Shown here: positions 42,034 to 64,000 of the stretch, in pieces
How the letters are laid out: every line of letters begins with the position of its first letter
Numbering within the stretch: position 1 is the first letter of the stretch
From: Bdellovibrionales bacterium
Lineage (GTDB): Bacteria; Bdellovibrionota; Bdellovibrionia; Bdellovibrionales; UBA1609
NCBI GenBank assembly: GCA_965219095.1
Contig: CBDCMT010000001.1
Coordinates: forward strand, 2,112,001 to 2,176,000
Reading direction: 5' to 3'
Length of the DNA stretch: 64,000 bases
Position numbers and translations under genes: made by a program
The notes under the pieces: generated by a model
What the model saw: only the letters and a program-made list of their open reading frames with translations
What the model was told of the DNA's origin: nothing
Databases searched by the model: none

Positions 42034-42226
42034 AAAAAATCTACAAATGATAGAAAATTTATTATTGGTTTTTGTATGTGAAATGACCTATGGGACTACT
42101 GATAAAATATCAACAAATATAGGACTCACTTTGAAATAATTACACATCTTAAACGTAAGTCAGTTATCTGACCGCCCTATCTGAGCTTAAATTTCTCTTA
42201 TAAGTTTTTCTTAGAGGGAGGATTTT

Positions 42227-42556
42227 ATGGAAGAAGGGATTAATTTAAAAAAGAAGATACAGCTTTGTCGAGAGGAAAATTCCAACAAGAAGCTTATACG
42301 CTACCCAGAAGCTCTTAAGAGAGAGATTCTAGATTTTTTGAAAGAGGAAAAGGTTTTTAAATTTTGTAAAGAGACAAAAGTCACCTCCTCCACGATCAAT
42401 AACTGGAAGAAGTCTTATGTTTCAACAGTATCCCCTAAGAAGTCTCTTTTTAAGGCCGTTTCTTTGAAAAAGGAAAGCTTATGTGAGGATAAGAAGGTCT
42501 TAGTCTTAAAGGGTCTAGATTGGGAAGAGATTTTAGAATTAGTGAAGAATTTATGA
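42227..42556 (+). CDS. tnpA: IS66 accessory protein TnpA (HTH)
   Basis: RYPEALKR, STINNWKK; first ORF of IS66-B. Confidence 0.75.
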   Translation: MEEGINLKKKIQLCREENSNKKLIRYPEALKREILDFLKEEKVFKFCKETKVTSSTINNWKKSYVSTVSPKKSLFKAVSLKKESLCEDKKVLVLKGLDWEEILELVKNL

Positions 42557-42882
42557 TCTTTTTTTCTGAAGGCTATCGTATTTTTGTCTGCTCTCGAAAG
42601 ATAGATATGCGATGGAGTTTTGAGAGGTTAAGTTATTTGGTAAGAAGTGAGATGAAAGGTGAGATCAACTTGGGAGATCTTTATCTCTTTCTAGGTTTTA
42701 ACAGAAAGAGGTTAAAGGGTCTGTTCTATGATGGGAGTGATCTTGTTTTACTAACAAAGAGGATGGAGAAAAAAAGGTTTATGAGTTTAAGTGATTTAAG
42801 TTTTCCCCAATTAACAAGGAGTGAGCTTAAGCTTTTAGTTCATGGTTCGATTTTAAGAAAGTACGAACCTGAGAAAAGATAA
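42553..42882 (+). CDS. tnpB: IS66 accessory protein TnpB (Orf2-like, not the RNA-guided TnpB)
   Basis: IDMRWSFERL, LYLF...RKRLKGLFYDG...LLTKRME; ATGA overlap. Confidence 0.85.
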   Translation: MIFFSEGYRIFVCSRKIDMRWSFERLSYLVRSEMKGEINLGDLYLFLGFNRKRLKGLFYDGSDLVLLTKRMEKKRFMSLSDLSFPQLTRSELKLLVHGSILRKYEPEKR

Positions 42883-42945
42883 TTTTTTTAGATTATTTTT
42901 TTTTAAAATCTTGCAAAACAAAAAAAGACATGTTGACATTAATGT

Positions 42946-43996
42946 ATGCAAATGAGTCTTTTTCCTTATTTAAAAAAAAAAGCGAAAACCCTGAATACAA
43001 ACATCTTCCTTCGTTTGTTCGAGAGGAAAAAGACTCAGAAAATATAAAGTTGATTTTCAATGAATTCATTCACCTTTATAAAAAAAAAATTAAATGAGCT
43101 TAAGAAGAAAAAAGAATTAAAGAAGATCAATTAAAGCTTTTTAATGATGAACAGCTTAGTAAGTTCAAGAAAATAGTATTTGGAAAATCCAGTGAAAAAA
43201 GAAAACTATCTTCTCGTAGTAGAAAGAAGCTTAAAAAGACAATTCTTCTTGAAGCTGAGAGTTTAGTTCCTGCTCCTAAGGAAGAGGAGATGAAGGCTGA
43301 TCTTCCCCTAAAAAAGTGGACAGTTTTTATTACTTTAGTGAGAGCCGTTCAGCGTGTTCTGTTAAAGAACTCTTAGGCTCTTATAAGGGGCTTATTTTAA
43401 CAGATGGATACGTTAGTTATAAAACACACTTTAAGGATGAAAAGGGAATTGATCTTGCTTTTTGTTGGTCTCATGCGAGAAGAAAGTTTATTGACATAGA
43501 ACAGAATTACCCTAAGGAGTGTGGAAAAGTATTAAAGCTTATGGGGGAGATTTTTAAAGTTGAATCAAAGGCAAAAACTTATGAAGAGCTCAAAAGTTTA
43601 AGACAAACAGAATCAAAGGATTTAGTTTTTAAACTTCAGGATCTGTATTATAAGCTTTATGGAAAAGCTCGTCCTGAGAGTGGGTTAAAAAAGGCTATTG
43701 ATTATAGCTTTAATCACTGGGATGGCTTAAATTTATTTTTAGAAAATGAGAAAATTCCTATGACCAACAATGAAGCAGAAAGAACGATTCGACATTCTGT
43801 GATGGGAAGAAAGAACTTTCATGGATCAAGGACTCAGAGAGGGGCTGAAACAGCAGCAGTGCTTTACACTATTGTGGAAAGTTGTAAGAAGGTGGAATTA
43901 GATCCTAAGGACTATATTTTAATGGTTGTGGGAAACTCCCTCGATAAGATACCTATTAAAACGCCTTTTGAGTATACAAGTGAGCTTCGTTCTTAA
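42946..43996 (+). pseudogene. tnpC: IS66 transposase TnpC, frameshifted and internally deleted
   Basis: VFGKSSEKR fragment; TDGY, CWSHARRKF, TNNEAERTIR. Confidence 0.85.
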
Positions 43997-44300
43997 AGAA
44001 TAAAGCACAAAGAAAATCAAAATTATGAAAAAAAACTAAGAATTATTCTTTTAAGAACTTCTCTAATACTTTTGTAACGGGGAAGGCCTTAGGAAAACGT
44101 CTTACAACGCCGTTTTACAACAAGATCAATAAAAACTTCTCCTTTAAAATCTAAGAAATATCCTCCTCAGTAGAAGTCAAGGGCTGTTAAGAAACTGACT
44201 TATCGAAAACCCAACCCCCTTTTTTTATATTGAAATAAAGAGGCGATAAGGAATAGGTTTGTCAATAATAGTCAACCTAGACTTCTTGAATAAAGTTTAT

Positions 44301-45791
44301 TTAATACAGTTTCATTTGTGAAAATCTAGACATAAATTCTTCCATGTCTTTTATACTACTAGATAGTTCTGCCATAGAAAGTAGGCTGAACAGTTCAGCG
44401 ATTCGGAAAGAAATTCTACGAGCTTTTTTTTCTTCTTGGATTATACCTTTTGGCATAAGTTGGGATAACTCTTGCAAGATATGAGAAGCAAGTGGGATGG
44501 TTTTTGATTGTATAATGTCAAAACTTTCTGGATATTTTTTAAAAACTCGTACAACATCAAGGCTTAATACGTTGGTAGTTCCCTCCCAAATAGAAAAAAC
44601 TTGAGTATCTCTTAATCGGCGTGGTAGATCGGTATCCTCAATATAACCTGCTCCTCCAAAGCTTTCTAAAACCTCACTGACAACCTTTAAGCACACTTTA
44701 GCTGTGAAAAGTTTGACAACAGGAGTAAGAAGCCTCCATAAAATGATTTCTTCTTCAGAAGCTTTTTTTAACTCTACTTTTTCAAAAAGTTTTACAACAT
44801 AAAAAGTAAAACAAAAGCAAGCTCTTGTTTGTGCTTCTAAATCATCTAAAGTTTCCTTATGGAGAGAGTGTTCTATGAGAGTTTTGCCAAAGGCCTGTCG
44901 TTTCAGAGCGTAATCTTGAGCTAATAACAAAGCACTCCTTGCTTCACTGATAGCACAAACTGCATTGTAAAGACGAGTGGTGTTTAAAACAGGAGATATG
45001 TTTTTAATTCCCTCGCCTAGTTCTCCTACGAGATAAGCTGGTGTTCTTTCAAGCTCTAACTCTGCTGTAGGTAAAGCCTTCGTTCCTAACTTATCCTTAA
45101 GTCTTCTGATTTTTATATTTTGAAGCCTTCCCTTTTCATCTTTTAAACAAATAGCAAATAAACTTAAACCTTGATGTGTTTTAGCCAAAGCTAAAGACAT
45201 ATGCGATGTTGTAGCCGAAGAAAACCACTTTTGCCCTTTTAAATAGTACAAACCCTCTGAAAAGGATGCTTCGGTAAATGTTCTAGACACATCAGAGCCT
45301 CCTGTTATTTCTGTCATCCATTGTCCTGATGTCCAAAAAAAATGAGGATCACGGCTTAACAGATGAGGAATAAAAATCTTCTTTACCTGAGAGTTAGCTT
45401 TTTTTTCTAAAGCTAAAACAGCTCCGTCTGTCATAGCTAAAGGGCAGGAAAAAAACGCACTCATGTGATGGAACACATAAATATGCGACATTTGATAAAG
45501 ACGTGCATGAGGTGTGTTTTCATAAGTCATGGCAATCAAACCCTCTTTAGCAGAAAAGTCGTGCATACTTTGCCATAAAGCTGAAAGCTCTATTTTATCA
45601 CTTCTTTTTCCCCAAGGATCATAAGGTATGTGCTGAGGGTAATGGTAATGAATCCGAGAGTCCCAATTAAGTTTCTTACTAAAACTTTCAAGACGGCTGA
45701 GGTCTTTTATGTGTTGCTTCAAATAAGTTTGCAAAAGAGGGTCACCTTTAAAAAGACAAGGTTTTTGAGGAGGGGTTTGATAAAAACTCAT
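44301..45791 (-). CDS. Acyl-CoA dehydrogenase (AidB-like)
   Basis: CPLAMTDG, WTSGQWMTE.TGGSDV, RLKDKLGT, R.AFG, GGAGYIED, IWEGTTNV. Confidence 0.9.
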   Translation of the reverse strand: MSFYQTPPQKPCLFKGDPLLQTYLKQHIKDLSRLESFSKKLNWDSRIHYHYPQHIPYDPWGKRSDKIELSALWQSMHDFSAKEGLIAMTYENTPHARLYQMSHIYVFHHMSAFFSCPLAMTDGAVLALEKKANSQVKKIFIPHLLSRDPHFFWTSGQWMTEITGGSDVSRTFTEASFSEGLYYLKGQKWFSSATTSHMSLALAKTHQGLSLFAICLKDEKGRLQNIKIRRLKDKLGTKALPTAELELERTPAYLVGELGEGIKNISPVLNTTRLYNAVCAISEARSALLLAQDYALKRQAFGKTLIEHSLHKETLDDLEAQTRACFCFTFYVVKLFEKVELKKASEEEIILWRLLTPVVKLFTAKVCLKVVSEVLESFGGAGYIEDTDLPRRLRDTQVFSIWEGTTNVLSLDVVRVFKKYPESFDIIQSKTIPLASHILQELSQLMPKGIIQEEKKARRISFRIAELFSLLSMAELSSSIKDMEEFMSRFSQMKLY

Positions 45792-46675
45792 GAACCTAAC
45801 TTCCAGTTCATAAAGTTTTCTCTTTGATGAATAGGGATATACTTTCCTTTTTCATTTTTAGAAATTTGAGAAAGTGCATATTGGCTATCATGAGTATAAA
45901 ACAAATACCAAGAGTCTTTGCAAGCTCTTTTATAAAGACTTTGTTTTTCATCAATGACCTTTTCAGGATAACGATCGTAACCCATAGTTAAAGGGAGGTG
46001 TAACCAAGGGATTCCAGGAATTAAATCTCCGGCAAAAAACACAAGATCTTTGTGTTTTTTAAAACCTACATGAAGTTGTCCCGGTGTATGTCCATAACTT
46101 AAATGAAAGAAAAGTTCTTCAGGAAGCTTTTCAGGTTTTTTATCCTTTTTCACAACCAAAAGCCTTTTTGATTCCTTAAGTAAGGGTACAAGAGAGGGTA
46201 TAAAAGAAGCCCTATCTCTTAAATGAGGTTTTTGAGCACGTTCTAAAGCCACATCCCCTACAACATAACAAGCTTTAGGAAACAAAAGCCTTGGTTTTTT
46301 GTCAGGATCATAAACTGATAAAAGTCCTCCCGCATGATCGAAGTGCAGATGAGATAAAATGACAAAATCAATATCTTCTTCGTTGAGGCCTATGTTCTTT
46401 AAATTCTCTAAAAGAATATGGGTTTTAGGGTTTTGAACACCATACCTTTCAGCTAAAGAAGGTTCAAAAAAAGCTCCAATCCCTGTTTCGCAAAGAATGT
46501 TTACAGAGCCTATTTGAGCAAGCAAAGCTCTACAAGCTAGAGGGATACGGTTTTTTTCATCAGAAGGAAGCCATTTCTTCCATAATTCTTTAGGAACGTT
46601 TCCAAACATAGCTCCCCCATCTAATAGCTGACGATTACCTTCAATAGAGGATAAAATGATAGATTCTTTCATCAT
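45788..46675 (-). CDS. MBL-fold metallo-hydrolase (YtnP-like)
   Basis: LDGGAMFG.VPK, SHLHFDHAGG, GHTPG, GDLIP, MGYD. Confidence 0.9.
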   Translation of the reverse strand: MMKESIILSSIEGNRQLLDGGAMFGNVPKELWKKWLPSDEKNRIPLACRALLAQIGSVNILCETGIGAFFEPSLAERYGVQNPKTHILLENLKNIGLNEEDIDFVILSHLHFDHAGGLLSVYDPDKKPRLLFPKACYVVGDVALERAQKPHLRDRASFIPSLVPLLKESKRLLVVKKDKKPEKLPEELFFHLSYGHTPGQLHVGFKKHKDLVFFAGDLIPGIPWLHLPLTMGYDRYPEKVIDEKQSLYKRACKDSWYLFYTHDSQYALSQISKNEKGKYIPIHQRENFMNWKLGS

Positions 46676-46770
46676 TAAGTATTATAGCATAAGCTTTCAT
46701 TTAATCACTACAATGCGTTAAAAACGTCTCATTTTTTCTTCTATAGACATAAGAAAATCCCTTAGAGATA

Positions 46771-48624
46771 ATGAAGTGTATGTCTCAAACACGCCCTTCT
46801 TCAGGCCTCCACTGGATCATTGCAACAGGAATTGTAGGGGCCGATATTGGAACGTCTGTTTTTTATGGTACAGGTATTTTGTTCCCCATTGTAGGTTACT
46901 GGGCACCTTTTTTTATTTTACTTGTGTGTTTTATGATGTGGTTTTTTAAGCGAACCTATGAAGAGGGTTTAGCTTTAAGTCCTTATAACGGTGGATCTTA
47001 TTCCATGGTTTTGAGAAGTTTAGGACGAAGAGTAGCTGTTCTTATAGGAGCTATGACAGTGCTTTCTTACCTTGCTACAGCTACTGTGAGTTCTCTTTCA
47101 GGAGCGTATTATTTCTCAACGCTTTGGGAAAGCTCTTTTGACTCTTCCACCATTGTGCTTATGGCTTTTTTTCCTCTTGTTTTTTTTGGCATCTTGAACT
47201 CAAGAGGTATTAAAGAACCTGCAAAACTTGTGACTGTGATCACGGCCTTGCATTTTGCACTTTTAACCATCATGGCTTTATGGGGTCTTTTTTATTTAGC
47301 TTTTCATTACGAAGCTATTGATTTTACAAGGCTTCAAAACTTACAGTTGAGAAAAGAGTTTACTTTAGGACTTTTTGTTTACGGAGTGGCGGCTGCTTTT
47401 CTAGGGATTACAGGTTTTGAATCAGCGGCACAAATTGTAGAGGAATTACAAGCTCCGGCCCTCCTTACTGTCAAACGCCTTTATAAGGCTGTGATTCTTC
47501 TTGTGTCTTTCACTGCTCCTCTTATTTCTTTTTTGTGTTTGATGATTCTTACAAAAAACGAAGTGAACCAAAACCTCGATTCTCTTCTTTCAGCCTTAGC
47601 TCATAAACTAGGAGGACGTGGTTTTGTGACGGTAATTGTAGTGGATGCAACTTTAACTCTTTTTGCAGCCACTAACACAGCTTTTGTAGGATTCATTGGT
47701 CTCGCCACCACTATGGCCAAACAAGGAAATTTACCTCTTTTTCTTCTATCTCGCTTCCAACATCATTTTCCCTCCGTAAAAGGCTACCCTTTTATTGCTT
47801 TACCTTTTATGTTAATTGCCATGCTCATGACAGCTTTCGTTACAGGGGAAATTGAAGTTGTGGCTAAAGTTTATGAAATTTCTTTTATTTTTGTCATGGT
47901 GAGTTTCTGTATAGGTGTGATTCTTATGAGAAATAGGAAAATTAGAAACAACATTCAAACAGAATACCTTTCCACTTGGATCTTAAAAATAAAAAATAAA
48001 AAAATCCCTATTATACCTTTAGCTTCAGCTCTTGTTTTACTTACAGCTAATGTGGTTTTGTTCTTAAATTCATCAAACCAAGTACATCTTATGTTGCTTT
48101 TTCTCCTGTCTTTTACTCTTTTGATTATGATCTACTACCGATGGGGGGTTTTAGAGAAACGTTTAGAAACTCACAGTGACTTGCGTTTAGGATTAGGAGT
48201 TTATTCGCGAGTCATGGACCTCCCTCACGACTTAAAGAAGTATGTTCTTTGTGCTGGAGGTGTAAATGTGAGGCGACTCATCAACCAGTGTATTGAAGTT
48301 CTCTTAAAGAGGGAGGAAAAATTTGAGCTTATCATTTTTCATGCAGAAGACAGTCCTGAAGAAGAAAAGGAATCCTTTTTCTTTGAATTGCTTCAAAGAG
48401 TGATTTCTCAGCAAATCGCCCCCCTCTATGAAAAACGAGGAGACTTTATTTTAACAGTCAAAGTTTTACCAGGAGGCCTTGAAGAAGGTTTACAAGGTCT
48501 TAAAAAAATCACTCATATTGAAAGAATTTTTTTAGGAGTGGGACGTACTTTAGAGGGAACACAAAAAGCCTCTCAGTCCATTTCTTCTGAAATTCAAATT
48601 GAAACAGAAATCATAGAAAGGTAG
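46771..48624 (+). CDS. APC-superfamily transporter with cytoplasmic C-terminal domain
   Basis: GADIGTS, NGGSY, ITGFESAAQ, ~12 hydrophobic segments. Confidence 0.82.
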   Translation: MKCMSQTRPSSGLHWIIATGIVGADIGTSVFYGTGILFPIVGYWAPFFILLVCFMMWFFKRTYEEGLALSPYNGGSYSMVLRSLGRRVAVLIGAMTVLSYLATATVSSLSGAYYFSTLWESSFDSSTIVLMAFFPLVFFGILNSRGIKEPAKLVTVITALHFALLTIMALWGLFYLAFHYEAIDFTRLQNLQLRKEFTLGLFVYGVAAAFLGITGFESAAQIVEELQAPALLTVKRLYKAVILLVSFTAPLISFLCLMILTKNEVNQNLDSLLSALAHKLGGRGFVTVIVVDATLTLFAATNTAFVGFIGLATTMAKQGNLPLFLLSRFQHHFPSVKGYPFIALPFMLIAMLMTAFVTGEIEVVAKVYEISFIFVMVSFCIGVILMRNRKIRNNIQTEYLSTWILKIKNKKIPIIPLASALVLLTANVVLFLNSSNQVHLMLLFLLSFTLLIMIYYRWGVLEKRLETHSDLRLGLGVYSRVMDLPHDLKKYVLCAGGVNVRRLINQCIEVLLKREEKFELIIFHAEDSPEEEKESFFFELLQRVISQQIAPLYEKRGDFILTVKVLPGGLEEGLQGLKKITHIERIFLGVGRTLEGTQKASQSISSEIQIETEIIER

Positions 48625-48629
48625 AGTTT

Positions 48630-49670
48630 ATGACAAAGAAAATAGGTATTTTAGGGGGAGGTCAGTTAGCTCGCATGCTCACACAAGAGGCTCTTCCTAT
48701 GGGCTTAGAAATCCATGCCTTATCGGAGAGTAAAGATGATCCTGTTGCAAAGGTTTGCCCTTTGTGGAAAAAAGGCTCGTTGAAATCAAAAAGAGATTTA
48801 AAAAAATTTTCGGAAAGAATGGATCTTCTTACTTTTGAAAGTGAATTCTTGAACACAAATCTCTTAAAAACTTTTAAAATAAAACCATCTTTGCGTCTTA
48901 TGACAATCTTACAAGATAAACTTCATCAAAAACTCTTTTTAGAAGAATACAAACTTCCTGTGACTCCCCTTAAAAAAAATCTTCTCTTTCCTTTTGTGGT
49001 AAAGCTCAGAAAACTCAGCTACGATGGTTATGGCACTTTCTTCGTTAACAATTTTGCAGATTTCACAAAACATTCTCTAAACTTTCGGAGCAAGGAATTT
49101 TTGTGGGAAGAAAAAATAGACTTTAAACGAGAATTAGCCATTACGGCTGTTAGAAATAAGAAAAAACAAATTGTTTTCACACCTCTTGTGGAAACCTTTC
49201 AAGAAAAGGGGCGATGTCTCTGGGTCAAAGGGCCTATTCACTTTAAAAAAATAAAAGGAGTAAAAGAAAAAATCAGAAGATTTTTAAACAAGATCCAATA
49301 CGAAGGAGCAATGAGTTTTGAATTTTTTGAAACAAAAAATAAAGAACTTTTCATTAACGAAGTAGCTCCTCGTGTTCATAATTCTTGTCATTACTCTTTA
49401 GATGCTCTCAGTGAAAGTCAGTTTGTCCTTCATTTAAAAGCCATTTTAAATGAAAATTTGACAGAACCGAAACTCCTCTGCAAAAAATTTTGTATGGTGA
49501 ATCTTCTATCGACAGGAAGAAAAAAAATCAAGTTGAGTTGGCCTCAACATGTCCATGTTTATTGGTATGGGAAAAAACACAACAAACCTTATAGAAAAAT
49601 GGGACATATCACTTGTTTAAATCAACCTCTAAGTTTTTTACAAACAAAAAGAAAGGAATTTTTATTATGA
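48630..49670 (+). CDS. purK: N5-carboxyaminoimidazole ribonucleotide synthase
   Basis: [35 protein letters not shown]. Confidence 0.95.
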
Positions 49671-50152
49671 AAGTAGCTATTATTATGGGAAGTGATTCCG
49701 ATTTACCAAAAATGAAGGAAGGAATTAAACTTTTAAAACAAATGAAGGTTCCCTTAGAGGTAAAAATTGTATCAGCCCACAGAACTCCTTCTTTTATGAA
49801 AGATTATGCTGAAAAAGCTAAAAAAAGAGGGATTCAGATTATCATCGCAGGTGCTGGCGGCTCAGCTCATTTACCCGGCATGGTAGCCTCTCTCTCTCAC
49901 TTACCTGTGATAGGAGTTCCCATTGAAACTAAAAAACTTAAAGGTCTTGATTCCTTACTTTCAATAGCACAGATGCCCAAAGGAGTTCCTGTGGCCACTA
50001 TGGCTATTGATAATTCCTTTAACGCTAGCCTCATGGCAATAAGGATTTTATCTCTTCATAACAAATCGCTTCATAAAAGACTCGAAGCTTTTCAGAAAAA
50101 ACAAGCTTACAAAGTGTCAAAAGCAAATCAAAAATTAAAACGTCTCTTTTAG
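49667..50152 (+). CDS. purE: N5-CAIR mutase
   Basis: [38 protein letters not shown] overlap with purK. Confidence 0.97.
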
Positions 50153-50264
50153 GAGATAAAAGTCTTTTTTTAAAAACTTTTGAAGTGCTTAAGTTCATTC
50201 CATAAGCCTCTTATTTCGGATCTTTTCTTGCTTACTTTTTATTATAAGTAAAAAAGGGGGAACT

Positions 50265-50447
50265 ATAGATAAATATCATTTACAATATGAATTACAATAC
50301 TTTGGACTTAATCCTAAAGAATGGTTATTCTGTGAACTGAAAAATAACACAGCCGTACTGGTGCATAAAAAACATACCTACTTTAAGTTAAAAGGCATTA
50401 TTGAGAAAGATTCTTGGAAGACCATAGACTGTATCAGTTCTTTTTGA
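50265..50447 (+). CDS. Unannotated 60-aa ORF starting at ATA (non-canonical start or pseudogene)
   Basis: SD AAGGGGG at 50254-50260; open frame IDKYHLQYELQYFGLNPKEW...SWKTIDCISSF*. Confidence 0.45.
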   Translation: MDKYHLQYELQYFGLNPKEWLFCELKNNTAVLVHKKHTYFKLKGIIEKDSWKTIDCISSF

Positions 50448-50604
50448 AAGATTTAAAAAGGAAAAAATATCTTTTTTTGTAAATAGGAAGTTTTTTTCTT
50501 GACATACTTTCTCATAGATGACTTCGGTCACAACATAAAATAAAAAAAGGACCATCTGTTAAGATAACCCCTTTTAAACATCTGGTTTTAGTGAAAAAGT
50601 GTTT

Positions 50605-51468
50605 TTACTGAAGAAGGAAAAGACCCATCAAGTTGTAAGCATTTTGAGTGGGAATTCCTATGTGAGTAGCTGCTTTTACAAAGAGCTTATGAATTTCAAC
50701 AGGATCTGCTGTTGCTTGTTCCATCTCATCAAATGAAACTCCAGTCATTTCTTGTGCGTACCAATTAGCTGTCTTTCTATCCATGCTATCTGGATCAAGG
50801 CTTGCAAATTCCATAGCTAGCTCTGCTATTACTGGAGCTTTGTCTTCAGACACATTAAACTGAGTGCGTAAGATTTCAGAGAATTTTTCAATTTTATTTT
50901 CTTCTATAAAACCAAGTTCCATTCCTGTATAGTAACCGTAAGTGCCTTTTGTATCGCTGTATTGTTTTCCTGTGTTAGGATCTGTATAAATCTGATTAAT
51001 AATATAGTACCGTATAATTGTATCTCCCTTTACTATGTGAAAAGGGATTTTAAAGATTCTTTTTGATTGTACAAGATTAGTTACAACGTTTTCCCTATAG
51101 TAAGAGCCAATATCAGGATGATTCGGGCCTGTAAAACGGTTAAGATTCACAGCCACATACCCACTCTCAAAGTTGTTTCTGTCATAATAAATAGCATAAC
51201 CTGTTTGGTTAGTCCATGCCCTTAGTAATACAGTATCGTACCTTACACCTTGCTTATGGAAAACCCTATTAAGCTCTTTTGCAAAAAGTCGAGCTAAGTT
51301 TAGATGATCTTCATTTTGTCTTGTCCCCTTATAGTCATCATAGTCATCACCTACGCCTACGCCTAAGTCTAGATGATCTCTATTTTGGCCACCTCTATAG
51401 CCGCCGCAACCTACGAGTAAAAAAGCCCCAAGGATGATTGTCATTAAAGTTTTTGGTATTGTTTTCAT
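50605..51468 (-). CDS. Hypothetical lipoprotein
   Basis: Lipobox LVGC; SD AAGGAGG. Confidence 0.75.
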   Translation of the reverse strand: MKTIPKTLMTIILGAFLLVGCGGYRGGQNRDHLDLGVGVGDDYDDYKGTRQNEDHLNLARLFAKELNRVFHKQGVRYDTVLLRAWTNQTGYAIYYDRNNFESGYVAVNLNRFTGPNHPDIGSYYRENVVTNLVQSKRIFKIPFHIVKGDTIIRYYIINQIYTDPNTGKQYSDTKGTYGYYTGMELGFIEENKIEKFSEILRTQFNVSEDKAPVIAELAMEFASLDPDSMDRKTANWYAQEMTGVSFDEMEQATADPVEIHKLFVKAATHIGIPTQNAYNLMGLFLLQ

Positions 51469-51963
51469 ATTTCCTCCTTCATGTGTAAAGATTAAACTTA
51501 AAAAAATTATATCCTTACTTTTATTTCATGTAAGTGTAGGAAAGAACTCTTACTTCTGTCGGTTTTATCTTTACCACTCACTTATGTTATAACTACAAAG
51601 CTACTAGCAAACCTCTAATATTTTGTCAATAACCTTTTTAAAAAAATGTTTTAATATTTTGCAACATTTGTTTTGTTCTGACTTTGGTATAAATATATTA
51701 AAAGTTTTTTTGAACTTCATTTTTAATTACTGTGCGTTACATAGAAATCAGGGATTCATACCAGTAAAGATTTTAAAGCTTTCTTGCAAAATAAAATTAA
51801 AATGTAGTGGAATAAAAAACATTTCAATGTGCTTGTTTTTACACTATGGATTGCACTGAAAAAGTGGAGTCAAAATTAATGTATACGCAATGCATTAGTT
51901 CTAGATATAATGTGATAGGACAAAGACTTCCCAAAGGGATAACGAACATGAAAAGGATTATTA

Positions 51964-54365: not shown

Positions 54366-54387
54366 GTTTTTAACTCTTGTGAAGTTT

Positions 54388-54945: not shown

Positions 54946-56145
54946 GTGTTTAAAAATCATTTAGGTTTTTATTTTTTAAAAAATTACCTTTTTTCTAAAA
55001 GATCTGATTCCATTGTAAAAGTGATCTCCTATATTAGTATAATAACTATGTCTTTGGCCTTTTTTTCTTTTTTACTTGTTCTTTCTGTGATGAAAGGATT
55101 GAAGGAATCTTCTGTGTCTAGGTATCTGAAAGCAGAGCCTCATTTAGAAGTTATAGTTCCCTCCCCTAAAGACAAAAGAATTGCTTCACTTGAAAAAAGT
55201 TTGAATAATCAAAATGTAAAAAGACATTACATTTTTGAAAGCCAAGACTTGATCCTGAAAAATTCAGAAGGATTGCTTTCAGGAGTAAAGGCTATAGGTT
55301 TAAAAAAGAAGAATCTTATTAGATTTTTTAATAAGCCAGAAAATAAGAAATTAGCTCAAGATCTCTTAAAAAAAGAAGTACTCATAGGTGCCGACATAGC
55401 CTATACCCATAATTTTCTAGAAGGTGAAAGTTTGACAGCTTTCCCTCTAGAAGCAGCTCTTTACCCTGTGGGAGAAGTTCCTCTTTCAGAGTCTGTAAGT
55501 ATAAAGGGTCTGTTTAGTTTAGACGTTCCTGAGATTGATGGATCTACTATTTTTTATGTCATAAACGATACTTTTTCAGACTTTCGCAACTCAAAACAAA
55601 AAACCATAGGAGTTCATGTTAAATTAAAAAATCCTTACAAATACAAGGTTTTAGAAAATGATATAAAAGCTCTTGGATTTCAAGTGTCTTCTTGGAAGGA
55701 TCGCAATTCTGATTTTTTCTTCTCTCTCCAGCTAGAGAAACTGGTTATGGCTTTGTTTTTAGTCCTTACAGGACTTTTAGCTTCTTTCTCAGTTTCGACC
55801 GTATTATCTCTTTTAATAGAACAAAAGCAACAAGAGATCTCCACTTTAATGTCAATAGGTCTATGCTTAAACAGTGTAAAAAAACTTTTTAGACAAATTA
55901 GCTTCTTACTCTCATTTTTGGGTTTAGCTATTGGTTTGGGGCTTTCTATTCTCGTTTGTCTTTATTTAGAGGCCTATCCTCTTTATCTTCTCCCCTCCCA
56001 TGTGTTTTACGATTCAAGTCTTCCTGTTCATTTGACTTTAGATACCTTTTTATTTGTTTTTACTGTGGGGATTTTTATAGTTTTTCTCAACTCAAGACTT
56101 GCTGTTTTAGGATTTAAACCCCTTTTAAGAAGAAACTCATCATGA
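54946..56145 (+). CDS. lolE: Lipoprotein-releasing ABC permease, LolC/E family
   Basis: LVLSVMKG, SWKDRNSDFFFSLQLEK, EISTLMSIG, FYDSSLPV. Confidence 0.8.
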   Translation: MFKNHLGFYFLKNYLFSKRSDSIVKVISYISIITMSLAFFSFLLVLSVMKGLKESSVSRYLKAEPHLEVIVPSPKDKRIASLEKSLNNQNVKRHYIFESQDLILKNSEGLLSGVKAIGLKKKNLIRFFNKPENKKLAQDLLKKEVLIGADIAYTHNFLEGESLTAFPLEAALYPVGEVPLSESVSIKGLFSLDVPEIDGSTIFYVINDTFSDFRNSKQKTIGVHVKLKNPYKYKVLENDIKALGFQVSSWKDRNSDFFFSLQLEKLVMALFLVLTGLLASFSVSTVLSLLIEQKQQEISTLMSIGLCLNSVKKLFRQISFLLSFLGLAIGLGLSILVCLYLEAYPLYLLPSHVFYDSSLPVHLTLDTFLFVFTVGIFIVFLNSRLAVLGFKPLLRRNSS

Positions 56146-57026
56146 AAGCATTTCATTGTGCTAGTTACGGCAAATGGATCTTATGCGGTGAACATGCTGT
56201 CTTGAGAAACCATTCAGCTTTAGTTTTTCCTATCTACTCTAAAAAGCTAAACTTCCACTATAAGCCGGAAGATAAGCCCTTAAATGTAAGAGGAGAAGGA
56301 GGCTTTAGCGAACATTATAGATTTTTGTTTTTATCTATTTATCATAAAGCCCTAGATATGCTAAACATAAAATCTTTAAGAGGGGAGATTCATCTTTCAG
56401 GAAATTTGCCCGTAGGCTCAGGCTTAGGAGCATCAGCTAGCGTGTCTGTTATTTTAGGAAAGTGGTTTAAATTTTTGGGTTTTATAAAAACAGAAGAACT
56501 TTTTAGTTTTTGTAAAGGTCTAGAGGATGTTTTTCATGGAGAAAGTAGTGGCGCTGATATTGCCGTTAATTTAGAAGAAAAGCCTATTTGTTTTACAAAA
56601 ACCTCTTCACAGCCTATCATTCATCCTTTACGGTTAAAATGGAATCCTTACTGGCTTTTATCTTTTTCAGGAGAAATGGGATTCACAGCAGATTGTGTAA
56701 GAAAAGTCAAAGATCTATTCAAAACTGATCCTCAACACGCAAGAAAACTTGATCTGACCATGAAAGAGGCTGTGGAAGAAGCTTCAAAGGCAATTTGTGT
56801 TTTAGATCAAAAGGAAGGACTCTATGTCTTAAAAGAGGCTGTTGATAAGGCTTATGCTTGCTTTAAAGGTTGGGGTTTGATCACTGATCATTTAGAAAGT
56901 TATATGGAAAGCCTAAGAGAGAAAAATTGTTTAGCCTTAAAACCCACAGGAGCTGGTGAAGGAGGTTATGTGCTGTCTTTGTGGAACTCTTATCCCACAC
57001 TCCAGAAATCTTTTATTAAGATTTAG
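56142..57026 (+). CDS. mvk: Mevalonate kinase (GHMP family)
   Basis: GKWILCGEHAV, PVGSGLGASAS, HGESSGAD, KPTGAGEGG. Confidence 0.85.
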   Translation: MKAFHCASYGKWILCGEHAVLRNHSALVFPIYSKKLNFHYKPEDKPLNVRGEGGFSEHYRFLFLSIYHKALDMLNIKSLRGEIHLSGNLPVGSGLGASASVSVILGKWFKFLGFIKTEELFSFCKGLEDVFHGESSGADIAVNLEEKPICFTKTSSQPIIHPLRLKWNPYWLLSFSGEMGFTADCVRKVKDLFKTDPQHARKLDLTMKEAVEEASKAICVLDQKEGLYVLKEAVDKAYACFKGWGLITDHLESYMESLREKNCLALKPTGAGEGGYVLSLWNSYPTLQKSFIKI

Positions 57027-57299
57027 TTTACAACCTCTTCCCTCATAATGAAACCTCAAGCACTCTTCTAACGATCAAACGTTTTATATGTCGAAAAATT
57101 TTATCTCTCCATGGAAAGTATAGCTTGTATTTTTTACTATTTCCCTACAAATCATGAATTGAAAATCGTTTTATTTGTAAGAATATTTTGTATAATCAAC
57201 ATAACCCTCTTTTTGTCTCAAAATGAGTCACTCGGACTAAAGGTATAAACTGAATCTGTCGATAAAAGATTGTAAAAAAAAATAAAAAAAGGGAAAGGA

Positions 57300-57992
57300 A
57301 TGAAATCTTTAATCATAATTTTACTATCAGTCTTGAGCGTACAAGTAAAAGCTAGCCATTGTACTGAAGAGTGTTGTAAGATTGAGAATTTTAAGGCAAA
57401 TAATTGTCCAGAAGCAAAAATTTTAAGCTCGAATCTTTTGAGCGACTCCGGTTTTATGACTCTTTTTATGGGGAGTTTGGGAGTTTCCAGTGCTACAGCA
57501 GCCCTTACAGACTCCGTTAAAAAAGCATGCCTTGTGAATGCAGGCTTATCTGGCACTCTAGCTTATAAAACTTACAAACACAAAATGGCCTGTCAAGTCA
57601 AAATGAGTGATACACACAGTTCTCTATGTGTCGCAAATTTAGAGAGATTAAAAGTACAATTGATGGTTGCTATGACATCCCTCCTAGCTTCTACAGGTTG
57701 TGCGGCTGTTTTAGAAGTCAATGAAAAAATGGATGATAAACTAAACCGTTTAGGTGATGATGTAAATAAAATCAAAACCAAAACGATAATAGAAATAGGA
57801 AATATGATCGATCAAAAAATAGAAGCATCAATAAATAGACTAAAAAACAGTGACGAAATAAAAGCTCTTAAGGCTCAACTGTTGGAAGATATAAAAAATG
57901 AAGTCAGTGGTGTAAAGGGCGAAGCGTTGCAAGATATAGAAAACATGATCGATAGAAAAATAGATGAATATAGAAAAAAACTGGGAATCTAA
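57300..57992 (+). CDS. Hypothetical secreted Cys-rich protein with coiled-coil tail
   Basis: Signal peptide ending VKA; small-residue hydrophobic helices; repeated IxNMIDxKI. Confidence 0.7.
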   Translation: MKSLIIILLSVLSVQVKASHCTEECCKIENFKANNCPEAKILSSNLLSDSGFMTLFMGSLGVSSATAALTDSVKKACLVNAGLSGTLAYKTYKHKMACQVKMSDTHSSLCVANLERLKVQLMVAMTSLLASTGCAAVLEVNEKMDDKLNRLGDDVNKIKTKTIIEIGNMIDQKIEASINRLKNSDEIKALKAQLLEDIKNEVSGVKGEALQDIENMIDRKIDEYRKKLGI

Positions 57993-58073
57993 GTTAAGAG
58001 ATATCGTTTTTTAGTTTTAAAATATGCAAGTATTTAAAGTATGAAGCGTTTATTGATAGGGAGATAAGGGATT

Positions 58074-59291
58074 ATGAAGGGATATTTTTTTTCTCTATAC
58101 CCATTGCTGTTCTTGATTTTTTTAATTTTTTCATTTTTTTTATTTCAAAACTGTTCTTTTAGAATAAAAGGCGAGGATTCAGAAAGCGAGTTCTCAATTT
58201 CGGCAATTTTTGAAACTTCAGAAGAGTGTTGGAATTCTGATTTTCAGAGTTGCATTTTTTTTAAAAATCCTTTTTATTCTATGTCCATTCAAGATCAAAA
58301 CAATTTTTCTATAAAGGAAAGTTGGTTCAAAGAAGATTTAAGTTTATTTCAAATTCAAGCTATTGATCTTGAAGGTCTAGACTCTTCAGGTTTTTTAAAA
58401 AATGAAAGATTCTCTGTTATACCTTATGAGGATGAAAGACTTTCTGTCAAATCAATGGGAGAGAATAAGTTAAAATTTCACTACCCTTCTTCAGAATTAG
58501 CTCAAATAACTGCATACTACTGGACTCATAGAACTTTGAATCTCATAGAAAGCTTCATGCCTAAAGAAACCATAGCTCATACAGAAACATTCCAAGTCCA
58601 TACAAAAGCAAAAACAACAGGATGGTCTTCAAAAAAGAAATCCATATATCTTGGATATGATGAACAACTGGATACAGCCTTCAGTGCTGAAACCACCATT
58701 CATCTTGTAGCAGAAGCCAGTCTTTTTTTTCAAACCAATGGTGCTGTCTATAAACTTAAAGATAAGACAAAACATATCACTTGTGGTTTCATGCAAAAAG
58801 ATAAAACAGTGGCTTTATATAAAGACCACTGCTGTTCTTTAAAGAGGGGTTGCTCTAAAGCCCTTATTTTTGGGCAAGGCGATTATATTGTAAGTTTGTT
58901 CTTTCCTAGGGCTCCTATTGTAGGGGAAAGCTATGCTGGCAGTCTCACAGGTTTAAGCTACTGCGGAATTTCAAGAAACCTTAGCGAAGTGCGTCAAAAA
59001 ACTGCAGAAGAGTTCTTTACTGCTTGTTCAGAAGAGGGAATGCCAGGGCAGATTTTCACTATGGGGATTTTTTATGCCTCTCTTTGGTGGAACATCAGGC
59101 AACAAGCTCTCCTTGAGAAAAAAGAAGATGACGTAGATAAGCTTTTCTTCCTTCATCTCTTAAGATTAAACGGTGATGATGACATTATAACAGCCTTTGA
59201 GAAAGTCAGAAATTTAGATTCAGAAATTTTTCCTAAAGAAGAAAGTCTTTATTCTTTATTTGAAGAGGAACTTAAAGAGAGAGGGCTTTAG
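58074..59291 (+). CDS. Lipoprotein with degenerate M36/M4 metallopeptidase-like fold
   Basis: FQNCS lipobox; AYYW, IYLG, ALIFGQGDY, GIFYASLWWNIR; no HExxH. Confidence 0.6.
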   Translation: MKGYFFSLYPLLFLIFLIFSFFLFQNCSFRIKGEDSESEFSISAIFETSEECWNSDFQSCIFFKNPFYSMSIQDQNNFSIKESWFKEDLSLFQIQAIDLEGLDSSGFLKNERFSVIPYEDERLSVKSMGENKLKFHYPSSELAQITAYYWTHRTLNLIESFMPKETIAHTETFQVHTKAKTTGWSSKKKSIYLGYDEQLDTAFSAETTIHLVAEASLFFQTNGAVYKLKDKTKHITCGFMQKDKTVALYKDHCCSLKRGCSKALIFGQGDYIVSLFFPRAPIVGESYAGSLTGLSYCGISRNLSEVRQKTAEEFFTACSEEGMPGQIFTMGIFYASLWWNIRQQALLEKKEDDVDKLFFLHLLRLNGDDDIITAFEKVRNLDSEIFPKEESLYSLFEEELKERGL

Positions 59292-59294
59292 AAC

Positions 59295-59530
59295 ATGTTA
59301 AGAAGAAAAAAACTTTATTTTATTTTTTATTTAATAACTTTTTTATCTATTATGGCCATAGGAGTTTATTTTAATTCCACAAAGCCAAAAAGCATTTCTA
59401 AAGTAACCCAAGAAAAAACGGTTCAAAAAGAAAATATTGCAAAAAAAAGCTCTTCCTTTTCTTCACAAGCGTTAACGAAAACCTCATCAACAAACATACC
59501 AAATTCTGAAAGAAAGGATTCTCTGTCAAA
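59295..59530 (+). pseudogene. Membrane-anchored protein truncated by the inverted lolE-mvk copy
   Basis: N-terminal TM and low-complexity linker; frame runs into antisense mvk at 59531. Confidence 0.6.
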
Positions 59531-60392
59531 ATCAGCGCCACTACTTTCTCCATGAAAAACATCCTCTAGACCTTTACAAAAACTAAAAAGTTCTTCTGTT
59601 TTTATAAAGCCTAAAAATTTAAACCACTTTCCTAAAATAACAGACACGCTAGCTGAGGCTCCTAAGCCTGAGCCTACGGGCAAATTTCCTGAAAGATGAA
59701 TCTCCCCTCTTAAAGATTTTATGTTTAGCATATCTAGGGCTTTATGATAAATGGATAAAAACAAAAATCTGTAATGCTCGCTAAAATTCCCTTCGCTTCT
59801 TACATTTAAAGGCTTATCTTCTGGTTCATAGTAGAGGTTTAGCTTTTTAGAGTAAATAGGAAAAACTAAAGCGGAATGGTTTCTTAAAACAGCATGTTCA
59901 CCGCATAAGATCCATTTGCCGTAACTAGCACAATTAAATGTTTTCATGAGAAGTATCCCTTAAAAGAGGTTTAAATCCTGAAACAGCAAGTCTTGAATTG
60001 AGAAAAACCATAAAAACCCCTGCTGTTAAAACAAATAAAAAGGTATCTAAAGTTAAGCGAACAGGAAGGCTCGAATCATAAAACACATGGGAGGGGAGAA
60101 GGTACAGAGGATGAGTCTCTAAGTAAAGACAAACAAGAACAGAAAGCCCCAAACCAATAGCTAAACCTAAAAAGGAGAGTAAAAAGCTAATTTATCTAAA
60201 AAGTTTTTTCACATTATCTAAAGAGAGTCCTATTGACATTAAAGTGGAGATATCTTGTTGTTTCTGCTCTATTAAAAGAGATAGCACAGTCGAAACTGAA
60301 AAAGAGGCTAAAATTCCTGTGAGGGCTAAAAACAAAGCCATGACAAATTTCTCTAGCTGGAGAGAGAAGAAAAAATCAGAATTACGATCTTT
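59531..60392 (-). pseudogene. Inverted diverged partial copy of lolE 3' end and mvk 5' half (source 55696-56558)
   Basis: Reverse-complement match; nonsense CAA>TAA at ~60192-60194; mvk fragment ends at SSGAD. Confidence 0.92.
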
Positions 60393-61001
60393 GCCGAGCT
60401 CCACTAGCATGCTGATGAATCGATACGTAATACCAATTACAGAAATTAATTCGACATTTTCATGTTCAAATTTAAAATTTTAAAATTGACTTAAGGAAAA
60501 GTTTCAGTTAGGAGGTTTTAAAAAAACTTCTTTTAAGGTGAGTTTAAGTTTTCATAAGATAAGTTTATTTCAGGTATATCTATTTGTTGTGTAAATCGAT
60601 TGATGGGTTAAAATAAGTGTAAAAAAGTGAGGGTAAAATTTAAAATAACAAAAATCAGTTACACAATTTAATTTATAGGTTCAAATTAATTTACAAGCTT
60701 GATTCATCTTGTTGTTTTGTCCAAGATCGAGTGCATAATTTTTTAATCCTGCCCTCCTGATCGCAAAAAGTATTCCAGGCCTCACAACAAGTATTCAGTA
60801 TATGGTCATAGTTTTTAAAACATGCATTCGATAATTTGATCCTTCGTAATTGTTGCCAGACTTGTTCCATGGGATTTAATTCTGGACTATAAGGAGGTAA
60901 AGGCATCAGGGATAAATTCTTAGGAACTATCAAAGTCTCTGTGGTATGCCAACTGGCTCTGTCCATTAAAACAATTCCATGATAGTTTTCTTGAATATTT
61001 T

Positions 61002-62533
61002 GTAACTGCTCACCTACATTGTTCAGTTATCCTTAACTTTAGACCTATTTTAAGATAAAAGTCTTGCTCTTACAGATTTTCTTTTAAATACTTTTTTCAA
61101 ATGACAATAAATAAGACCTCCATCAGAAATGAGATTGAAAATATAAGAAGTGACTTTGATAAGTTTGCAAAGAAAGGTTCTGTGCCTACTGAGATTTCTG
61201 TGGTTTTTGAATCTCTCTTTAAGGTTGTGAACATTCTGATTGCTGTGCTTTTAGAAAAACAGGTTCGAAAAAATTCCAGCAACAGCGGTCTTCCTCCTTC
61301 GCAAGATTTTAGTCGTCAAGGGAATCGTAATAAGAAAGCTAGTGGGAGTCAAAAAAAGGGCTCTAGACTTGATAACAGTAAAGATACAAACAGTGAGGAG
61401 ACTGTCTTTCCCTCAGAGTGTTCTCAGTGTGGGATGTTTTTAAAGACAGCAGAGGTAAAAAGCCTTGAGAAGCGTAAAAAGATTGATATTTTTTATGAAA
61501 TTCAGACCCATACTGTAACTTCTGAAGTTAAGGATTGTCCCTCATGTGGAGCTAGAAATAAAGGTCAATTCCCTAAAGGTATGAGTGGTCCTCTTCAGTA
61601 TGGTATAGGCATTAGAGCTTCCATCATCAATTTCATTATAGTTCAGATGCTGTCTTTTCAACGTGTTGGGGAACATTACATGGGGCTTATAGGTCGAATG
61701 ATTTCTCCTGCAGTTATGTTGAGATACATTGCTGAATTAGGAGAGTTTCTTAAAAGTTGGGAAGAGCAGATGAAAGAAAAGATACTTGAATCAGAGGTCA
61801 TTCATGTTGATGAGACCTCTATGAGGGTTAAGGGTAAAAACTACTGGATTCATACTTATAGTTCAGGAGAATTAGTCTTGCAGTTTCTCCACCTTTCAGG
61901 TGGAAGGGAAGCCATAAAAGATATTGGTCTCTTGGATAGATATGGAGGAGTGCTTGTGCATGATTGTTGGAGTCCTTACTTTTGTTATGATAAGATAACT
62001 CATGCTTTGTGTGTGGCTCACCTTTTGAGAGAGCTTAAATTTATAGAAGAAAGCAATGGATTCAAATGGGCTACAAATCTCAAAAAACTTCTTAAAGAGA
62101 CTGTGGAGTTAGTTCATAAAAAAGAGTCAAGAGTTCTGACTCAAAAAGAGTACGAAACTCTTCAGAGAAGGTATAGGAGTATTCTTACAAAAGGCTTAAA
62201 AGAGCTTCCAGAATTTCCTAAGAAAAATGGCAAGAAAGGACGAATAAAGCATACACAAGCTCAAAACCTTTGGCTGCGATTTAAAAAGTATGAAGCAGAA
62301 ATACTGTGCTTTGCTAAAAGAAAGAACGTAGATCCTACTAATAACAGAGCTGAAAGAGATCTAAGAATGACTAAAGTGAAAAAGAAAGTGTCAGGGTGTT
62401 TCAGAACAGAAGAAATGGCGAAATATTTTTGTCGTATTACCAGCTATGTTAAAACAATGAGAAATAGAGGGTATTCTTCTTTAGAAGCCATCTCTATGGC
62501 TTTAAATAAAAACTTACGAGAGTGAGCAGTTAT
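61002..62533 (+). mobile_element. IS66-A copy 3, TSD AATATTTT
   Basis: GTAACTGCTCAC...GTGAGCAGTTAT; TSD at 60994-61001 and 62534-62541. Confidence 0.95.
61101..62525 (+). CDS. IS66 family transposase (intact, 474 aa, ISBst12-like single ORF)
   Basis: NSSNSGLPPS, CSQC/CPSC, HVDETS, LVHD, CVAHLLREL, TNNRAERDLR. Confidence 0.94.
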   Translation: MTINKTSIRNEIENIRSDFDKFAKKGSVPTEISVVFESLFKVVNILIAVLLEKQVRKNSSNSGLPPSQDFSRQGNRNKKASGSQKKGSRLDNSKDTNSEETVFPSECSQCGMFLKTAEVKSLEKRKKIDIFYEIQTHTVTSEVKDCPSCGARNKGQFPKGMSGPLQYGIGIRASIINFIIVQMLSFQRVGEHYMGLIGRMISPAVMLRYIAELGEFLKSWEEQMKEKILESEVIHVDETSMRVKGKNYWIHTYSSGELVLQFLHLSGGREAIKDIGLLDRYGGVLVHDCWSPYFCYDKITHALCVAHLLRELKFIEESNGFKWATNLKKLLKETVELVHKKESRVLTQKEYETLQRRYRSILTKGLKELPEFPKKNGKKGRIKHTQAQNLWLRFKKYEAEILCFAKRKNVDPTNNRAERDLRMTKVKKKVSGCFRTEEMAKYFCRITSYVKTMRNRGYSSLEAISMALNKNLRE

Positions 62534-63761
62534 AATATTTTTAGATATCTCATCTAAGTGAATTTGCATCATCCCTGAATTACATTCCGGTAAAATCCAA
62601 GCACAGCCTTTATTTCTATCCGGACAAACTGCTCCAAAAATATAAGTGGATAAAAATTGTCTTTGCCTCACAACTCTAGGCCGTGTGCCTTTTCTTGCCC
62701 AAATCCTGCTCAAAGAACCTTGCTGAGCTTATTCTGCATTCATCCTGCCACCAAATCTCTATTTTATGAGTCTGAATCTTTTCTTTTATTTTCTCCACCT
62801 CTTCTGGAAAATGTTCCTTAAACTGTTCCATAGCTTCTTAATGAACTTTTAGGATGAAGAGAACGACCACTGATCCATACAATATTAAGGCGGTCTAAAG
62901 AAACATAAACCCCAGAAAGAGAATAGCAACAGTCAAATTCATCTGCTAAAAGTTTCTGTATTCCCTTTGCTCCTATGCTTCCTCCCTCTCTTTTGTCTTG
63001 AATTTCATCTAACTTGATTTTGAACCTCTCTTCTTCTGTTACTGGCAAACGAGGCTTGCGTCCTCTGCCTTCTCGATCTATCAATCCCTCGTAATCAAAG
63101 TCTACAAAAAAAGACTGTAACCAGGATTTGATACTGTGACGGTGATACAAAACCATACCTGCTGTTTCTTGAATCGATTTTCCTTCTTGCATATGCTGCA
63201 AAGCCAATAATTTTGTCTTGATGTTGGCACTTCTTTCTACTTTGTAAGTAGCCAGAAAATCATACCCTTGAATCTGTGTAACTAAATCTTTTTTCGACAT
63301 GACTCTAAAAATTTAACAGAGTTTTATCAAAAAGCCAGGACGCAATGAGTTAAAAAAATGTCGAATTAATTTTTGGAAATGGTATAACTTCCGTCGATGG
63401 ACACCCGCTCTGTATCAACTTCTTCTTGTAAAGTAAAAAAAAATCATTCCATAACCCTTTTTGTACCCACCTATTAAAGCGATTATATGCTCTCTTCCAA
63501 GGACAGAACTGTTCAGGAATATCACGCCACGGACTGCCTGTACGTAATTTCCATAAAATTGCTTCCATAACATTTCTATTGTTTGCTGAATGATAACAGC
63601 CTTTCTCTCTTATAATAGCTTCCAGATCCTTCCACATAGAATCTGTTAAAACTTTTCTTAACATAACACCTCCCTTTGTTATGAGCTTTTTACAATCTTT
63701 ATAAATATTCAACACGGCTAAGGTCTTGAAAAAGGTCTAGGCAAATAAGGACATGCCCTAG

Positions 63762-63912
63762 AAGAACTTCTCTAATACTTTTGTAACGGGGAAGGCCTTA
63801 GAAAAACGTCTTACAGGCTCGTTTTACAACAAGATCAATAAAAACTTCTCCTTTAAAATCTAAGAAATATTTCCCTCGTAGGAGTCAAGGGCTGTTAAGA
63901 AACCCGACTTAC
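63762..63912 (+). mobile_element. IS66-B right-end remnant
   Basis: Matches 44053-44203; ends CCCGACTTAC followed by TCTTAAAC. Confidence 0.88.
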
Positions 63913-64000
63913 TCTTAAACAATTAAATGAAATATGAGAAAATTTTAGGAATACCTACAGATATGGAGATAGAATCCTTAAAAAAAGTAAAAACAGCACC

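Follow-up and report, generated by a model that had tools for sequence, protein, structure and literature searches.

How did about 14 kb of host genes come to be enclosed by two ends of one insertion sequence (IS), IS66-B, that share a single target duplication? The locus is a 21.8-kb block (42155-63912) in a 64-kb window, C2:2112001-2176000 of the Bdellovibrionales genome G000, an assembly of two contigs (C1 and C2) totalling 3.11 Mb; positions without a contig name are those of the window. The sequence-only reading of this window had placed the 8-mer TCTTAAAC directly before the IS66-B left end at 42155 and directly after an orphan IS66-B right end at 63912, and not after the right end at 44203 that belongs to the left element. 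The sequence agrees at all three junctions: the left TCTTAAAC is followed from 42155 by an end beginning GTAAGTCAGTTATCTGACC, the orphan end runs to its last base, 63912, and then into the second TCTTAAAC, and the left element's own right end, with a deviating terminal base at 44203 (...GACTTAT), is followed by CGAAAACC. From sequence comparison within this genome, we consider it probable that the block is a decayed IS66 composite transposon, formed duplicatively and intrachromosomally from a donor that was later mostly deleted.

The shared flank and a second copy of the right boundary

IS66-B ends were collected by a profile scan for the element and for MITE-like derivatives (MITE, miniature inverted-repeat transposable element); it gave 172 ends (161 after removal of 11 with duplicated context); the chance expectation for identical 8-base flanks was taken from a shuffle null. 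That IS66 elements make 8-bp duplications, as had been assumed, is borne out by IS66-B itself, since 18 of 45 facing end pairs at most 7 kb apart have identical 8-base flanks. Among the 33 facing pairs 7-25 kb apart the single exact match is the block 42155-63912 (expected 0.008). There is none in the 132 pairs at 25-100 kb, one in 1,737 beyond 100 kb (expected 0.4) and one in the 10,933 other IS66-B end pairs (expected 2.6). By these counts the null is not lenient for IS66-B. The suspicion that TCTTAAAC is simply a preferred target, named beforehand as one of two decisive objections, was rejected, as the 8-mer adjoins no further end among the 172 scanned. It conforms to a soft IS66-B target bias (p ~1.5e-4 per end), and three one-mismatch flanks occur elsewhere. 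The displaced pair is unlikely to be due to chance.

A second locus carries the same right boundary. About 640 kb from the block, beside a ccsA-like gene, C2:1532733-1531697 is a copy of positions 57073-57353 and 58053-58809 (86% and 94% identity), in which most of the open reading frame (ORF) ORF230 is deleted. This copy has decayed neutrally: over 729 coding bases that could be aligned it shows 30 substitutions (~4%), affecting 6 codons synonymously and 20 non-synonymously, and 6 gaps. Beyond it, oriented as in the window, lies an IS66-B right end (C2:1529304). The orphan end differs from that end by an edit distance of 4, against at least 11 for the other 170 ends and at least 12 for the rest of the 32 long right ends; the two are 97.4% identical (against 92.1%) and share variant columns. 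Their homology stops at the terminal base, where the flanks become TCTTAAAC and GATAGGGA, respectively. That the duplicated unit ends exactly at the IS terminus points to the transposase, as cleavage predicts such a stop. In a control with 168 low-copy duplicates, 24 end pairings were same-sided at both copies, and top-ranked ends were found only in the ccsA-locus pair and in one other. What stands at the second site between different flanks is the right part of the unit (cargo remnant and sister end, flank GATAGGGA); the left part is absent.

The arrangement in the window is that of a composite transposon. Two copies of the same IS in the same orientation (42155-44203 and 63762-63912) surround ~14 kb of host DNA, and the duplication is confined to the outer ends, with TCTTAAAC outside and CGAAAACC inside, the second inner end being lost. 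The IS itself has the hallmarks of the IS66 family, namely TnpC (internally deleted), TnpB upstream of it, terminal inverted repeats and the 8-bp duplication. No unbroken tnpC was seen in the three full-length IS66-B copies inspected. In two full-length copies, at C1:544939-547548 (L074) and C2:1457991-1460586, the first ORF and tnpB form one 218-aa frame, and tnpC lies in three pieces, broken at the same places.

In the course of events that we favour, chromosomal genes at the ccsA locus (C2 ~1.53 Mb) would have lain between two IS66-B copies in direct orientation, and transposase would have acted on the outer ends of these copies. A copy of the genes would then have inserted between ORF230L and dsbA, duplicating TCTTAAAC; the donor, now dispensable, would have been largely deleted, the left part of the second IS would also have been lost by deletion, and younger IS5, IS630 and IS66-A insertions would have piled in afterwards. 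The donor may have survived the jump by a copy-out route or by cut-and-paste from one sister chromosome into the other. The movement presumably ran from 1.53 Mb to the site of the block, and the left gene block (44204-51846) presumably travelled in the same event; the bracket is the one argument for its membership, since it has no donor remnant and is joined to the right part across an ISL3 remnant with unmatched flanks. The relative ages agree with a composite formed first and nested insertions added later, as divergence from the nearest copies is ~3-4% for the old parts and ~1% for the nested IS5, IS630 and IS66-A.

Gene order in relatives bears on the direction. In 15 of the 38 relatives with both genes, ccsA and mvk lie on the same strand 15-26 kb apart (far apart in 2, on different contigs in 21), and rnr and dsbA, which flank the block on either side, are 25-45 kb apart in 8 of 36 (far apart in 5, on different contigs in 23); these relatives are kin and the counts are not independent. 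Six rnr-dsbA regions of relatives were examined; they contain no cargo genes and map largely to C2 2.14-2.26 Mb. A 25-kb cluster of the type resB-ccsA...mvk...pheST is collinear in all ten relatives examined and split over ~10 places in G000 (its gene names beyond ccsA and mvk were read from gene order and size). The synteny of purK-purE and of lolE-mvk, whose comparison the sequence-only reading had suggested, was followed in relatives, where the modules of the cargo (APC-purK-purE, ridA-DUF218-lolE, mvk, MBL) for the most part lie apart from one another, the exceptions being G027 (purK-lolE, 10 kb) and G008 (purK-mvk, 13 kb), so that the block is a lineage-specific mosaic.

Alternatives to composite transposition

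Several observations weigh against a composite that jumped from the ccsA locus. At the second site a 2.2-kb ISL3 pile with unmatched flanks parts the cargo remnant from the sister end, and a projection through a third copy separates that end only weakly (4.1% versus 4.7%); we rely on the direct end comparisons instead. No donor remnant of the left cargo block was found in G000. The left end preceded by CGAAAACC that had been predicted elsewhere was not found among the 172 ends, nor was any other partner for the inner end at 44203 (with GAAAACCC as its flank if shifted by one base) or, among the IS66-B ends, for the flank GATAGGGA, so that this history requires the loss of three ends, inner ones or ones at the donor. 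The nearest look-alike of the inner flank, GAAAAACC at C2:1378884, was excluded because it is already paired at 6.9 kb. The ccsA adjacency is modest evidence (by a rough estimate expected by chance in 1-9%), since the ccsA-to-mvk cluster is scattered over ~10 places in G000. Of the 34 relatives that have a match to the thioesterase gene situated 5 kb beyond the right edge of the block, three (G013, G016 and G038) carry it no more than 35 kb from a cargo gene; weak paralogues lie near cargo in three more, in total at about chance level. Recombination between copies is common and the shuffle null may be lenient: distant exact matches of the younger IS66-A exceed it (18 in 9,794 pairs against 4.8 expected and 5 in 1,885 against 0.9, in total 23 against 5.7), which indicates that recombination between copies scatters partners and that low-complexity targets are under-modelled.

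No close relative that could show the empty site was found in our scans. There was no same-genus relative among the genomes searched, a protein-cluster look-up gave no sister strain (7 of 10 proteins present, all singletons), a metagenome pattern search returned none, and protein scans of metagenomes and genomes returned one irrelevant match and none, respectively. The best non-self match of mvk is 62% identical, and its best named matches are from Bdellovibrionales.

Homologous recombination is the strongest of the alternatives, and we regard it as unlikely. A circle excised between direct IS66-B copies would enter a resident IS66-B flanked by TCTTAAAC and split its ends, the donor being kept on a sister chromosome. 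Such a history suits a genome in which most IS66-B ends are without a local partner, in which the copies are mosaics and in which IS66-A has the many far-displaced partners just described; in Agrobacterium, IS66-IS66 recombination is reported to have deleted 270 kb (PMC6778807). A weak further hint is that the left-end subtype pairs with the right-end subtype of the orphan, not with its own, in two other close end pairs. However, recombination predicts an outer right end derived from the resident, whereas the orphan has its one sister in C2:1529304, the end beside the donor remnant. It would require later conversion, or a resident that happened to carry this rare variant too (2 of the 32 long ends), and it would take two recombination events plus retention of the donor.

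Slightly less probable again is the reverse direction, in which the window was the first site of the bracket, however it arose there, and C2 1.53 Mb received a copy by a later composite jump, a copy that then decayed. Both directions accommodate the duplicate and its sister end; it is the window that has the functional genes, and as there is no inward-facing IS66-B end in 44204-57073, the jump would also have used the end at 42155. This direction leaves the TCTTAAAC bracket in need of a separate origin, no end is preceded by GATAGGGA, and synteny pairs ccsA with mvk and rnr with dsbA. Even so, the bracket would still be a composite.

With neither circle nor composite, an intact IS66-B could have had its right end displaced by 20 kb through one inversion followed by another, or through a join that the assembly made across repeats; we think this improbable. 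The GC skew changes sign every 25-100 kb, conserved clusters are scattered, and repeats with at least five copies make up 35% of the genome, all of which would favour it, but inversions neither duplicate cargo nor explain the sister end at the remnant, and against a join the junctions are, as judged from the assembly, unique in structure, and the repeats are short beside a contig of 2.4 Mb. The least probable explanation, by a small step, is that two unrelated ends have the same eight flanking bases by chance: two distant chance matches do occur for IS66-B, TCTTAAAC fits the target bias, and several IS families could have been inspected (look-elsewhere odds perhaps 0.05-0.1, an estimate), but against the 0.008 expected at 7-25 kb stand the sister-end duplicate and the flank synteny, which are independent of the 8-mer and indicate the same right boundary.

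Composite transposition from the ccsA locus is also favoured over circle integration, the other of the two mechanisms first offered, because the closest relative of the orphan end has a decayed cargo copy next to it, an arrangement that a circle does not predict. That the cargo came from elsewhere is supported, its source appearing intrachromosomal, not foreign; a foreign origin of the whole block is unsupported, as its GC content is like that of the rest and its duplicate is intragenomic. The view that the block arrived as one unit is supported by a donor copy for the right cargo (57073-58809 and the right end) and not for the left block. The block is thus a real feature of a known class, better supported than the sequence-only reading could show, and only in part as one unit.

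Anatomy of the block and other IS66-B units

IS DNA accounts for ~7.5 kb of the block's 21.8 kb, and the ~14 kb of host DNA falls into two parts, 44204-51846 and 53811-60392 (Table 1). The intact cargo genes are single-copy in G000, except for the lipoprotein family, ORF230 and distant acyl-CoA dehydrogenases. With its internal IS scars (50459-50524 and 51847-53810) and an inverted partial lolE-mvk copy the block is not a clean unit today. IS66-B copy 1 lacks ~550 nt of tnpC at a scar marked by a short IS end, presumably IS3-like by its end features. The two host parts are joined at the 48-nt ISL3 remnant; ISL3 duplications are kept in only one of eight close ISL3 pairs in G000, and its unmatched flanks therefore say little about continuity. 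At the right side IS5 cut copy 2 at a TAG, 151 bases from its end. At the deletion joint 60392/60393 the interior of this IS5 is fused to the inverted lolE-mvk fragment and the rest of IS5 is gone; the missing left part of copy 2 was presumably removed there. A second IS5 insertion, at C2:1648865-1649888, uses the same TAG position in a different IS66-B right-end variant; the position is probably an IS5 hot spot. A 10-bp hairpin at ~63980-64020 would end the dsbA transcript, which is compatible with an intergenic target and not diagnostic of it.

Table 1. Positions of the block's components and of other IS66-B-related units (window positions unless C1 or C2 is given)
Feature	Position	Strand	Remarks
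Left target-duplication copy TCTTAAAC	42147-42154	+	sequence
IS66-B copy 1, internally deleted, IS66 family	42155-44203	+	outer left end 42155; inner right end 44203, then CGAAAACC; ~96% identity to nearest copies
Putative tnpA-position ORF, 109 aa	42227-42556	+	by position; no Pfam family match
IS66 TnpB accessory gene	42520-42882	+	PF05717 and NF033819 above cut-off
Short end of another multi-copy IS (presumably IS3-like)	43298-43330	+	at tnpC deletion point
3' part of IS66 TnpC transposase	43316-43996	+	PF03050 and NF033517 above cut-off
Left cargo block	44204-51846		contains IS scar 50459-50524
AidB-like acyl-CoA dehydrogenase	44301-45791	-	left cargo block
MBL-fold hydrolase	45788-46675	-	left cargo block
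APC transporter	46771-48624	+	left cargo block
purK	48630-49670	+	left cargo block
purE	to 50152	+	left cargo block
Lipoprotein-like ORF	50605-51468	-	left cargo block
Internal IS pile	51847-53810		truncated multi-copy IS fragment; clean IS630 insertion (51983-53399); 48-nt ISL3 remnant (53763-53810)
Right cargo block	53811-59526	+	six genes and an ORF cut at 59526
ridA	53982-54365	+	right cargo block
DUF218	to 54945	+	right cargo block
lolC/E-like permease (lolE)	54946-56145	+	right cargo block
Mevalonate-kinase-like gene (mvk)	56142-57026	+	right cargo block
Stretch with decayed duplicate elsewhere	57073-58809	+	duplicate C2:1532733-1531697
ORF230	57300-57992	+	right cargo block
ORF405	58074-59291	+	right cargo block
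Inverted partial copy, lolE 3' end and mvk 5' end	59527-60392	-	90.5% identical to 55696-56562
Nested IS pile	60393-63761		IS5 fragment (60393-60430 and 63385-63761); IS630 inside (~60430-63387); single-ORF IS66 inside IS630
Single-ORF IS66 (IS66-A)	61002-62533		duplication AATATTTT; within IS630
Orphan right end of IS66-B copy 2, 151 nt	63762-63912	+	outer right end of bracket
Right target-duplication copy TCTTAAAC	63913-63920	+	sequence
Protease-like gene copies	C2:900286-901493, 175661-176868, 152438-153360, 830284-830488		
Protease-like gene, ~90% parents	C2:938538, C2:1785884, C1:602107, C2:2236079		
IS66-B MITE examples	C2:15235-15415, 826140-826397, 1413043-1413163; window 23196-23316		

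The inverted lolE-mvk copy shows a synonymous excess (lolE 29 synonymous to 20 non-synonymous, mvk 13 to 8), and its last 170 bases are nearly identical. It diverged under purifying selection, unlike the decayed remnant near ccsA, and is possibly a sister-lineage allele or an old functional paralogue, partly converted.

Other genes have been carried by IS66-B ends in this genome. At C2:1979618-1981000 a 70-base IS66-B MITE, 1.2 kb of a host-type gene (protease-like by a motif read by eye, without a Pfam match) and a right end have AGTAAAAC repeats at the outer ends and a different, unmatched 8-mer at the inner end. When searched separately, the flanks proved to adjoin each other, overlapping by 8 bases, at 25 other places of a multi-copy repeat, which means that this 1.4-kb composite did insert with an outer duplication. 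Four further sites, differing in their flanks, show the same junction of cargo and end. The gene (340-358 aa) has been mobilised repeatedly by IS66-B ends and MITEs. Two IS66-B left ends, at C2:736544 and C2:1814034, have a common junction with BspA-type leucine-rich-repeat genes and different outer flanks, possibly a third cargo unit. MITE families derived from IS66-B measure ~70, 120, 180 and 257 bases, and in many cases the 8-bp duplication is intact. At C2:442100-449571 there are three near-identical tandem 2.5-kb units, each with an IS66-A left part and two genes, one of them protease-like; they are possibly a recent amplification or an assembly artefact.

The genome as a whole is rich in repeats, another copy existing for 46% of it, and its scrambled GC skew carries no signal on the origin of the block. 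The final 8.6 kb of C2 (C2:2388495-2397094) is 99.99% identical to the internal stretch C1:220448-229047, which points to a structural variant or to a junction that the assembly left unresolved. Immediately to the left of the block, 35519-40081 encodes a 1520-aa protein with DUF4011, superfamily-1 helicase and MTES_1575 nuclease domains, possibly a defence gene.

Relation to known elements and meaning

Composite transposons are textbook knowledge, and genomes rich in ISs commonly show displaced target duplications; the class to which the block belongs is therefore not new. A composite based on IS679, Tn679, was reportedly shown to transpose by Han and co-workers in 2001. IS66-B resembles other members of its family in its TnpB and TnpC, in terminal inverted repeats starting with GTAA and in its 8-bp duplications. 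What sets it apart from known IS66 elements is the natural cargo of 14 kb of host DNA, the MITE-like and cargo-bearing derivatives and the broken tnpC of the copies inspected.

The literature describes several counterparts. The IS66-family elements ISPpa5 and ISPpa7 have 8-bp repeats (PMC3281130), and a tnpABC organisation is given for IS66 elements (PMC6778807). Tn6097 of Paracoccus is 17.8 kb long, with two ISPfe2 copies and 6-bp repeats (PMC3281130), and Tn125 and Tn4352 are IS-bounded composite transposons (PMC6737455). As far as these sources go, the block resembles the three in having one IS twice around host genes, a duplication at the outer ends only and a similar size; it differs in belonging to the IS66 family, in its single-copy housekeeping cargo that apparently moved within one chromosome, and in its decay, with a second IS of 151 nt and a visible fossil donor. 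On pAt15955 of Agrobacterium tumefaciens recombination between IS66 copies deletes a large segment (PMC6778807), and missing or displaced target duplications are described after IS-IS recombination and adjacent deletion (PMC11708052). With these cases, as described there, the block shares direct IS66 copies around a large segment and inner ends without matching repeats. On pAt15955, however, the segment was deleted and one hybrid IS was left, whereas here the outer ends share a repeat and the segment is duplicated up to the IS terminus. The consulted parts of PMC5994717 and PMC8369957 contain nothing specific to the case. In a literature search that left most subscription journals outside, we found neither a natural IS66 composite that had relocated housekeeping genes with its donor still visible nor a paper that settles whether IS66 leaves its donor intact.

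The trail left by this known kind of event is unusually readable here, and the case is useful in that a single genome lets one read the donor's remnant, the recipient, the target duplication and the relative ages together. A more far-reaching proposal, which we put forward tentatively and consider doubtful, is that a 20-kb block of housekeeping genes, each single-copy, was moved duplicatively by IS66-B, that copy-then-delete IS66 jumps, of which the protease-like gene and the BspA repeat gene would be further cases, are a main way in which this IS-saturated bacterium splits operons conserved throughout its taxonomic order without a lethal intermediate, and that the fossil donor would show from nature that the donor stays intact in IS66 composite transposition. 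The case bears on this last question. It also suggests that housekeeping genes can be copied within a chromosome, tens of kb at a time, by IS66 ends; if so, probably essential genes, such as those for the lolC/E-like permease and mevalonate kinase (presumed essential), could move via a safe duplicated state.

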